Shown here: in pieces, positions 936 to 1,397 of the stretch
Position numbering within the stretch: position 1 is the first letter of the stretch
Layout: each line of letters starts with the position of its first letter
Origin: Escherichia phage ECO95 1-6-1
Sequence record: OR845698.1
DNA: 1,762 bases
Strand: one strand, 5' to 3'
Made by a program: the position numbers and the translations under genes
The notes under the pieces: generated by a model
The model's input: only the letters and a program-made list of their open reading frames with translations
Database searches by the model: none
Told to the model about the DNA's origin: nothing

Positions 936-1203
936 GATACGCGAAGTGGAAACAGAGCTTCGCGCCCGACTCGTATCAATGGGGCAGACAAATTTCGCAA
1001 AGATGGCGGGATGGTCTGATTCAAAAGTAAGCCGCCTGAACATTCAGGATATGGCGGTGACCTTCGTTCTTCTGGAGAAGGTATGGGAGACGAGCTTAAT
1101 CAGGGAAGTGGCAAGACAGGCAGTGGAAGCTGTTATGCCGGGAAATAAAAAACGCCCGGCGTGCAAGACCGGGCGTTCTGAGCAAATCGATATGCAATTC
1201 TGA
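910..1203 (+). CDS. cII: CII transcriptional activator (lysogeny establishment), lambda cII homolog
   Basis: 97-aa ORF, the same length as lambda CII. The C-terminus NKKRPACKTGRSEQIDMQF closely matches the lambda CII C-terminus (TNKKRPAATERSEQIQMEF, recalled). The central segment carries an HTH-like region, and the gene sits in the expected position after cro and before O. Confidence 0.9.
   Translation: MELTNHSKKIREVETELRARLVSMGQTNFAKMAGWSDSKVSRLNIQDMAVTFVLLEKVWETSLIREVARQAVEAVMPGNKKRPACKTGRSEQIDMQF
1141..1177 (-). terminator. Rho-independent terminator on the minus strand (oop terminator to-like): stem CCGGGCGTT / AACGCCCGG followed by TTTTTTATTT
   Basis: A perfect 9-bp inverted repeat (1151..1159 and 1169..1177) with a 9-nt loop. 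On the minus strand the hairpin is followed directly by a T-run (reverse complement of 1141..1150). It lies inside the 3' end of cII, matching the lambda to terminator of oop RNA. Confidence 0.75.
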
Positions 1204-1226
1204 CGGAATTACTGGATCAATCCACA
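1141..1226 (-). ncRNA. oop: Putative oop-like antisense RNA (antisense to the cII 3' end), ending at the to-like terminator
   Basis: A terminator is present on the minus strand inside cII. A candidate minus-strand -10 (CATAAT, reverse complement of 1233..1238) would place the start near 1225, about 22 bp past the cII stop, as in lambda. The -35 is poor. The 5' end and promoter are inferred, not observed. Confidence 0.45.
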
Positions 1227-1235
1227 GGAGTAATT

Positions 1236-1397
1236 ATGCCAAAACGTCGTAAGAAATACCAGGAAAAAGAAGAGATTCGACACCCTGATTCACCTGAGGG
1301 ATTAGTGGTAGCCGCAGCAAATAACAGGGCGTTCGCAGAGCGCCTTGTTGGTGTTTACAGACTAGCCAAAGCAGGAGTGAAACATGGGCGTCGTTAA
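1236..1397 (+). CDS. Hypothetical small basic protein (53 aa; MPKRRKKYQEKEEIRHPDSPEGLVVAAANNRAFAERLVGVYRLAKAGVKHGRR), absent from the supplied ORF track
   Basis: Found by manual translation: ATG at 1236 preceded by a strong SD (AGGAG at 1226..1230, 5-nt spacing), stop TAA at 1395..1397. It fills the otherwise non-coding 180-bp cII-O gap and overlaps the O start by 14 nt in a different frame. No recognisable family; coding status is uncertain. Confidence 0.4.
   Translation: MPKRRKKYQEKEEIRHPDSPEGLVVAAANNRAFAERLVGVYRLAKAGVKHGRR

Follow-up and report, generated by a model that had tools for sequence, protein, structure and literature searches.

A lambda-type pO-oop-tO unit is predicted at the cII-ORF53 junction of Escherichia phage ECO95 1-6-1

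Phage lambda encodes OOP, a self-terminating 77-nt RNA with a 5' pppG that overlaps the last 55 nt of cII (PMC3349717). In lambda coordinates, the cII stop lies at 38653, the oop start at 38675, the -10 of the promoter pO at 38683..38688, and position -19 at 38694 (PMC3349717). Hayes et al. 2012 (PMC3349717) described a 33-bp region that includes the pO -10 together with the 5' end of oop and is common to lambda, 434, 21, 933W, HK97, Nil2, P22, ES18, and other phages, and they outlined the exchange of modules around this junction. Lambda CII keeps its activity without its last 17 residues, but these are needed for OOP regulation (PMC3349717). A LexA binding sequence inside lambda oop-pO is credited to Lewis 1994 in PMC5869508, and DnaA boxes have been reported downstream of pO, where DnaA protects sites (PMC3985674). 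[quoted passage not shown]

The element is also known outside lambda. In P22-infected cells, a 63-nt oop RNA (P22C-oop), which begins with GAUUGAUCCAGU, was found by small-RNA sequencing (PMC13397905), and an OOP RNA of prophage BTP1 (OOP-BTP1) was annotated from the transcriptome (PMC7067206). The P22 record BK000583 carries the label 'oop; similar to phage lambda' on both the terminator and the promoter. Between P22 c1 and gene 18 is a small ORF, orf48, whose start is covered by this promoter, TGGTCA-17-CATAAT; BTP1 is of the same orf48 type.

The locus, its candidate promoter, and the 33-bp junction

The 1762-base stretch of DNA analyzed here (the window) covers the junction between the immunity and replication regions of a lambdoid phage, with the gene order cI/cro/cII/small ORF/O. 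Positions 1146..1261 very probably constitute a pO-oop-tO unit that is orthologous to those of lambda and P22 and would act by the lambda mechanism. This identification is drawn from orthology, position, the fold and covariation of the terminator tO, and the conservation of an extended -10, as the original prediction of a lambda-type oop/to antisense module had suggested; the 33-bp region, the spacing, and the terminator are all orthologous. The genes of the window are as follows.

450..34, minus strand (leftward): cI-like repressor gene
555..779, plus strand (rightward): cro
910..1203, plus strand: cII, the target of the antisense RNA (Pfam Phage_CII, E 9e-10)
1236..1397, plus strand: ORF53, 53 codons (phrog_1331, HK97 gp53-like)
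from 1384, plus strand: start of a lambda O-type replication gene (Pfam Phage_rep_O)

The only close GenBank match, at 99.8% identity to the window, is Salmonella phage S.Kent 1-2-1 (OR850878), whose record is unannotated. The P22-like Salmonella phages epsilon34 and g341c are about 94% identical to the window from cro onward, and their records carry no oop mark. The CII of the window is 92% identical to that of epsilon34, and its body shares 30% amino-acid identity with lambda CII. A blastn search of positions 1..60, the DNA that interrupts cI, returned no match among phages.

The small ORF had been taken to be novel, but its whole length matches phrog_1331 (E 1e-36). This family, a conserved hypothetical protein described as HK97 gp53-like, is annotated in epsilon34 (gp49), g341c (gene 44), ES18 (gp58), Nil2 (ORF53), and mEp234. 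ORF53 is not homologous to P22 orf48 (E 0.27; separate PHROGs). The P22 precedent nevertheless indicates that an architecture with a small ORF is normal, and not unusual, in P22-like phages. Our literature search for experimental work on a pO of the ORF53 type found none. Nor was the adjacent intergenic region replaced, as had been proposed: the cII-ORF53 spacer is 32 nt long, as in lambda, and 26 of its 32 bases are identical. The alignment with lambda is close to identical in the terminator region as well. The divergence from lambda flanks this spacer, in the cII body on one side and, on the other, in everything beyond about -19 of pO, where ORF53 stands in place of O. The candidate promoter elements and the junction are placed as follows.

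1233..1241, minus strand: pO extended -10, TGGCATAAT (CATAAT at 1238..1233, TG at 1241..1240)
1256..1261, minus strand: candidate pO -35, TGGTAT, read from the sequence, within ORF53 and with a 17-nt spacer
1211..1243: 33-bp lambdoid 'high homology region', holding the pO -10, the oop start, and the first 15 nt of oop
1212..1227: LexA-box-like palindrome CTGG-N8-ACAG, CTGGATCAATCCACAG, spanning the oop start

The earlier assignment of CATAAT (1238..1233, minus strand) as the pO -10 was borne out by the 33-bp region. The degenerate consensus ACTGGATCWATCMACAGGAGTMATTATGMCAAA matches 1211..1243 with no mismatch, as does none of 200 shuffles, and the printed sequence ACTGGATCaATCcACAGGAGTaATTATGaCAAA agrees at 32 of 33 positions. 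It is this homology, unlike the motif count, that decisively identifies the hexamer as the orthologue of the lambda pO -10. TGGCATAAT is the sole TGNYATAAT in the window, but 0.20 are expected and 35/200 shuffles hold at least one, so that the count taken alone is weak evidence for pO. The first base of the -10 is C. From the cII stop (1203) to the beginning of the hexamer the distance is 30 nt and not about 22 bp, as had been stated; 22 nt is the distance to the transcription start. It should be noted that the TG extension of the -10 had been overlooked. On the plus strand, the 33-bp region supplies the Shine-Dalgarno (SD) sequence and the ATG of the next gene: the -10 overlaps the ORF53 ATG and codon 2, and the first nine codons of ORF53 hold both the -10 and the -35.

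The motif TGnCATAAT is present in lambda, 21, P22, Nil2, 933W, ES18, and SEN34. A survey of 17 annotated phages and 120 IMG/VR stretches with the junction motif yielded 131 copies, 72 of them unique. On its rightward side, the junction meets one of four unrelated sequences in these copies (lambda O, ORF53, orf48, or a fourth type), and on the other side it adjoins several cII/c1 3' ends, in many combinations; the 33-bp region is a junction between exchangeable modules. TGnCATAAT is invariant across the 72 unique variants and their four unrelated downstream ORFs, and it stays whether the downstream gene has ACA, CCA, or GCA as its second codon. This conservation is confounded, since the same bases serve as the SD/ATG of the next gene and as the recombination junction, and the invariance may reflect shared ancestry because the variants are close relatives.

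The caution with which the promoter had originally been proposed was justified. The candidate -35 TGGTAT matches TTGACA at 2 of 6 positions (its equivalents are TTGAGT in lambda and TGGTCA in P22), and because of this weak -35 a consensus promoter scan did not call pO. A lambda/P22 hybrid bears the P22 -35 (PMC3349717). The -35 region varies among family members and is hence no defining feature of them. Three unrelated ORF types retain CCTGG at the -35 position, and together with the TG extension this argues that pO does fire in the phage of the window despite its weak -35.

The start-site palindrome CTGGATCAATCCACAG is the sole CTG-N10-CAG in the window (0.40 expected; 66/200 shuffles have one) and is probably the counterpart of the lambda LexA site. 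Within it, on the minus strand, lies a DnaA-box-like TGTGGAT, which may correspond to the DnaA boxes near lambda pO. By analogy, the candidate pO could be under LexA or DnaA control.

The predicted oop RNA and its terminator

The RNA and its structural elements are predicted at the following positions.

1146..1225, minus strand: oop-type antisense RNA of about 80 nt, placed by alignment to lambda oop
1182..1225, minus strand: 5' hairpin (hairpin I), with an outer 10-pair and an inner 7-pair stem
1147..1179, minus strand: terminator tO, with stem 1179..1168/1160..1149, loop 1167..1161, and U-run 1152..1147

Lambda coordinates transferred to the window put the start of the RNA at 1225 and its end after the U-run near 1146. 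These exact ends are estimates by homology; the start given by the P22 small-RNA reads would be window 1222, 3 nt further in. Both the length and the target agree with the original prediction of an RNA of about 80 nt directed against the cII 3' end. The predicted RNA is antisense to the final 58 nt of cII, stop codon included, and to a 22-nt part of the spacer, with complementarity that is perfect over 1146..1225 by construction. It was also expected to pair with the 5' end of the small ORF, but the start at 1225 leaves 11 nt to the ATG (1236) and falls just short of the ORF53 GGAG (1227..1230). The RNA thus stops short of ORF53 and would not pair with it; the promoter alone overlaps this gene.

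A terminator scan of the window detected a single minus-strand site (1179..1149). The tO hairpin consists of 12 pairs (7 G-C) around a loop of 7 nt; U6 comes after the stem, the tail being TTATTTCCCG. The hairpin is placed inside the last cII codons, those for RPACKTGRS. The 9-bp GC-rich stem described at first corresponds to the Watson-Crick core, AACGCCCGG/CCGGGCGTT, and falls short of the full stem of 12 pairs. Folded alone (1181..1141, minus strand), the hairpin reaches -19.8 kcal/mol, whereas dinucleotide shuffles give -8.2 +/- 2.4 (z = -4.94), and 0/200 of them were equally stable. Scan and fold therefore agree with the earlier call of a minus-strand intrinsic terminator in the cII 3' coding sequence, whose stability was the check proposed for it. 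The plus strand has no T-run after the hairpin, so it works leftward only, and a role as a rightward terminator was ruled out.

In 22 lambda-type variants, 99.2% of the cells of the tO helix are paired, versus 38-48% in slid controls. Two neighbouring pairs are changed on both sides among these variants (C-G/U-A and G-C/C-G), probably in one event. RNAalifold retained the terminator alone as a consensus structure of the 22 variants. P22- and Sf101-type phages, which have unrelated cII/c1 3' ends, carry non-homologous terminators at the same place and distance, and SEN34 apparently has its own non-homologous terminator there, as judged by eye from the sequence. Unrelated terminators at the same spot are the strongest argument that leftward transcription is terminated at this position.

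The whole predicted oop RNA folds into two hairpins (-33.1 kcal/mol, z -4.86, 0/200 shuffles), and the same architecture, a 5' hairpin followed by a terminator, is predicted for each of the 30 unique homologous RNAs. Hairpin I shows no compensatory changes, and subtypes form it in different registers. Because lambda-type and Nil2-type RNAs differ in this respect, it does not emerge as a consensus structure; each variant is predicted to have a 5' hairpin, and we claim no conserved structure for hairpin I. Natural recombinants weaken this hairpin, as in L025 (-24.1 kcal/mol) and P27 (-25.2 kcal/mol).

An Rfam scan of the window with E up to 1 gave no family at its gathering threshold and no match to an oop family. 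Two sub-threshold hits were set aside as chance matches: AgvB at 1147..1203 (19.6 bits against a gathering threshold of 56, E 0.94), driven by the terminator, and RpsF_leader at 1472..1537, inside gene O. A peptide encoded by the leftward RNA was likewise rejected, the sole minus-strand ORF with its start inside this RNA (1197..1096, TTG start) crossing the terminator and lacking an SD sequence.

The survey also allowed the variant of the window to be placed. CII proteins that are only 30-35% identical have the last ~18 residues in common; this tail, which in lambda is dispensable for CII activity and needed for OOP control, belongs to the RNA module. In epsilon34, g341c, Oslo, and sal4, the closest cII relatives, 12-13 nt of the spacer have been lost, including part of the RNA 5' end. 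The window variant is a mosaic of an epsilon34-type cII body, a Nil2/933W-type oop 5' half, and a phage-21-type terminator loop. It has private substitutions in the hairpin I loop (C to G), in ATCGAT (A to G), and in the terminator (T to C and A to G), one of which turns a lambda U.G pair into C-G, and its predicted fold is the most stable of all variants. The exact oop combination was found in OR850878 only; it was absent from the 72 unique variants and from the GTDB species representatives.

The element of the window is therefore an orthologue of a long-known element, in a sequence variant that had not previously been annotated, and its importance beyond correct annotation is slight. Since there is no Rfam oop match and the related records are unmarked, automatic pipelines will miss the oop RNA.

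Proposed action and alternative explanations

By the lambda mechanism, RNA polymerase would start leftward at about 1225 from the extended -10 (TGGCATAAT) and the weak -35, and the strong intrinsic terminator in the last cII codons would stop transcription to release a two-hairpin RNA of about 80 nt. Perfect pairing of this RNA with the pR transcript would span the final 58 nt of cII and the next 22 nt of spacer. RNase III would then cut the duplex, as in lambda, so that the cII mRNA would be destabilised, CII lowered, and development tilted toward lysis; the dependence on RNase III is assumed here by analogy, the mechanism being known from lambda only. Initiation at pO, directed against pR, may in addition reduce the rightward transcription that reaches the replication genes.

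This last effect could be the main one, although we regard that as unlikely. In such a scheme, pO would matter mainly as a promoter that fires opposite pR and tunes ORF53/O/P transcription and replication, and the RNA would be a by-product in need of quick termination. In lambda plasmids and phage, inactivation of pO alters replication and pR read-through, and changes in the oop RNA level do not (PMC3985674). The same work reported the DnaA protection downstream of pO mentioned above; the window retains TGTGGAT at the start site, and the RNA 5' hairpin is poorly constrained. On the other hand, over-produced OOP RNA inactivates cII in trans, and replacement of nt 2-46 abolishes the effect (PMC3349717, PMC5869508). 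The CII tail, dispensable for the protein, is conserved alongside the RNA, and the weak -35 of the window argues against strong interference. Such a promoter role is compatible with an antisense role.

The antisense unit could also have acquired a different mode of control, which we consider quite improbable: the ORF53-type pO may have lost a functional -35 and become a pure TG-extended -10 promoter, with its output set by LexA/DnaA at the palindrome or by pR transcription/translation. If so, oop would be a conditional, SOS- or replication-linked brake on cII and not a constitutive one, and the terminator of this variant, very stable and fully Watson-Crick, would have evolved in compensation.

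Very improbable, in our view, is that the unit is an inherited relic, with the junction kept for the ORF53 SD/ATG and as a recombination linker, the hairpin kept as the cII tail, and the promoter silent. The -35 with its 2/6 matches, missed by the consensus scan, would fit a silent promoter, and, as is typical of a linker, the junction connects several cII types with at least four types of downstream ORF. The 12-13 nt of spacer lost in epsilon34, g341c, Oslo, and sal4 indicate that the region can decay. Promoters with a TG-extended -10, however, can be active when their -35 is poor. The TG is kept across the differing second codons ACA, CCA, and GCA, and three unrelated ORF types all keep CCTGG at the -35 position. 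The terminator of the window is the most stable of all variants, with its U.G to C-G change, and the terminators that unrelated c1 genes bring of their own to the same spot are hard to explain without leftward transcription.

That the hairpin and hexamer are chance features of coding sequence is effectively refuted by the hairpin stability (z -4.9, 0/200 shuffles), the exact 33-bp match, the spacing orthologous to lambda, and the terminator covariation, even though single occurrences of TGNYATAAT (35/200 shuffles) and CTG-N10-CAG (66/200) in 1.7 kb are not rare.

Comparison with known systems

The unit of the window, read as an orthologue of pO-oop-tO, resembles that of lambda in position, orientation, the 32-nt spacer, and the TGnCATAAT over the ATG of the next gene. 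The start lies 22 nt past the cII stop in both, and the geometry from promoter to next gene is that seen with gene O. The RNA, about 80% identical to that of lambda, has two hairpins and a GC-rich terminator in the cII tail, and the CTG-N10-CAG palindrome is found at the start site. In contrast to lambda, the -35 of the window lies in ORF53 and not in gene O, and TGGTAT is weaker than TTGAGT. The tO stem has a C-G pair where lambda has U.G, hairpin I is in the Nil2/933W register, and the overlap with cII is 58 nt instead of 55. The predicted RNA is about 80 nt long, against 77 in lambda; three extra bases in the terminator loop, which phage 21 has as well, account for the difference.

With P22, the window shares a small ORF between the cII homologue and the replication gene, its start lying under the oop promoter. 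The two are identical from about -20 to +15, TGGCATAAT included (1211..1245, 100% identity). The P22 c1 3' end and terminator are not homologous to those of the window, the RNA of P22 is shorter, with 63 nt recovered by sequencing and about 67 nt predicted, orf48 (phrog_1913) is unrelated to ORF53 (phrog_1331), and the P22 -35, TGGTCA, is better than TGGTAT.

Across these phages, different cII and downstream genes have been exchanged around the 33-bp junction, and the cII tail travels with the RNA, not with the protein. The window shares its ORF53-type upstream sequence and its hairpin I type with Nil2 and mEp234, and its terminator loop, TCTTGCAC, with phage 21. Compared with Nil2, mEp234, the HK97-type phages, the Stx phages (933W, Stx1), and 21, the window alone combines a Nil2-type half, a 21-type terminator, and an epsilon34-type cII.

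Reassortment around the cII tail and the 33-bp junction

Features of the window discussed here
450..34, minus strand: cI-like repressor ORF, 138 aa and then a stop
813..826: boxB-like hairpin (TCGCTGAAAAGCGA) in the cro-cII spacer
919..932, minus strand: CII-binding repeat TTGC-N6-TTGT (pRE) at the cII start
1146..1203: CII tail, cII codons 80-97 (NKKRP..RSEQI.M.F)
1236..1397, plus strand: ORF53 (phrog_1331)
about 1727..1762: lambda-type ori iterons (TCCCTCAAAA..) at the right window end

The last ~18 residues of CII are kept across CII proteins that share just 30-35% identity elsewhere. 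This tail travels with the DNA segment of oop, the predicted antisense RNA, and its terminator tO, and not with the body of the protein. The 33-bp junction, a conserved lambdoid region that holds the pO -10, the oop 5' end, and the SD and ATG of the next gene, was examined in the phage loci L001-L018 and in the IMG/VR loci that hold its motif (L019-L138). The genes downstream of it fall into four or more types and the cII/c1 3' ends into about six, and these occur in many combinations. Some recombinants, for example L025, P27, and L054, were joined within oop itself, and hairpin I (the 5' hairpin of oop) is weakened in these.

Variation in the oop promoter region and spacer

At the pO -35 position (1259..1263), the sequence CCTGG is retained among the IMG/VR loci in three unrelated downstream ORF types, namely ORF53, orf48 (found at the same place in P22), and the L060 type, while the remainder of these ORFs differs. 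One possible reason is selection that acts on TGG.. as part of the -35; another is a Gln codon context common to the ORFs. It should be noted that CCTGG is also a Dcm site (CCWGG).

The spacer between cII and ORF53, compared at 1212..1223, is 12-13 nt shorter in the closest cII relatives, i.e., epsilon34 (L001), g341c (L002), Oslo (L012), and 103203_sal4 (L013), where CTGGATCAATCC is absent. The missing bases make up a LexA-like palindrome as well as the 5' strand of hairpin I. The -10 and the terminator are retained. Any oop RNA made by these four phages would be shorter and would be regulated differently.

Repressor gene and sub-threshold Rfam matches

The counterpart of the cI-like repressor in Salmonella phage S.Kent 1-2-1 (OR850878) has 236 aa, including an S24 peptidase part (..GQSMEP..). 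Positions 1..~44 of the window consist of unrelated AT-rich DNA, for which the phage collection gave no match. At the left edge of the window, the repressor gene seems to be either broken or the product of recombination.

Two Rfam matches below threshold were judged to be due to chance: RpsF_leader (1472..1537, minus strand; 25 bits vs 37), located inside gene O, and AgvB (1147..1203, minus strand; 19.6 bits vs 56), which is due to the terminator hairpin.

ORF53 and comparison with related phages

ORF53, for which no Pfam match was found, shares 14 nt with the 5' end of the O-like gene (1384..1762). Since the SD and ATG used here by ORF53 directly serve O in lambda-type phages, ORF53 gives the impression of having been inserted between the junction and O. 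The annotation of epsilon34 is consistent with the boxB-like hairpin, the CII-binding repeat (pRE), and the ori iterons of the window.
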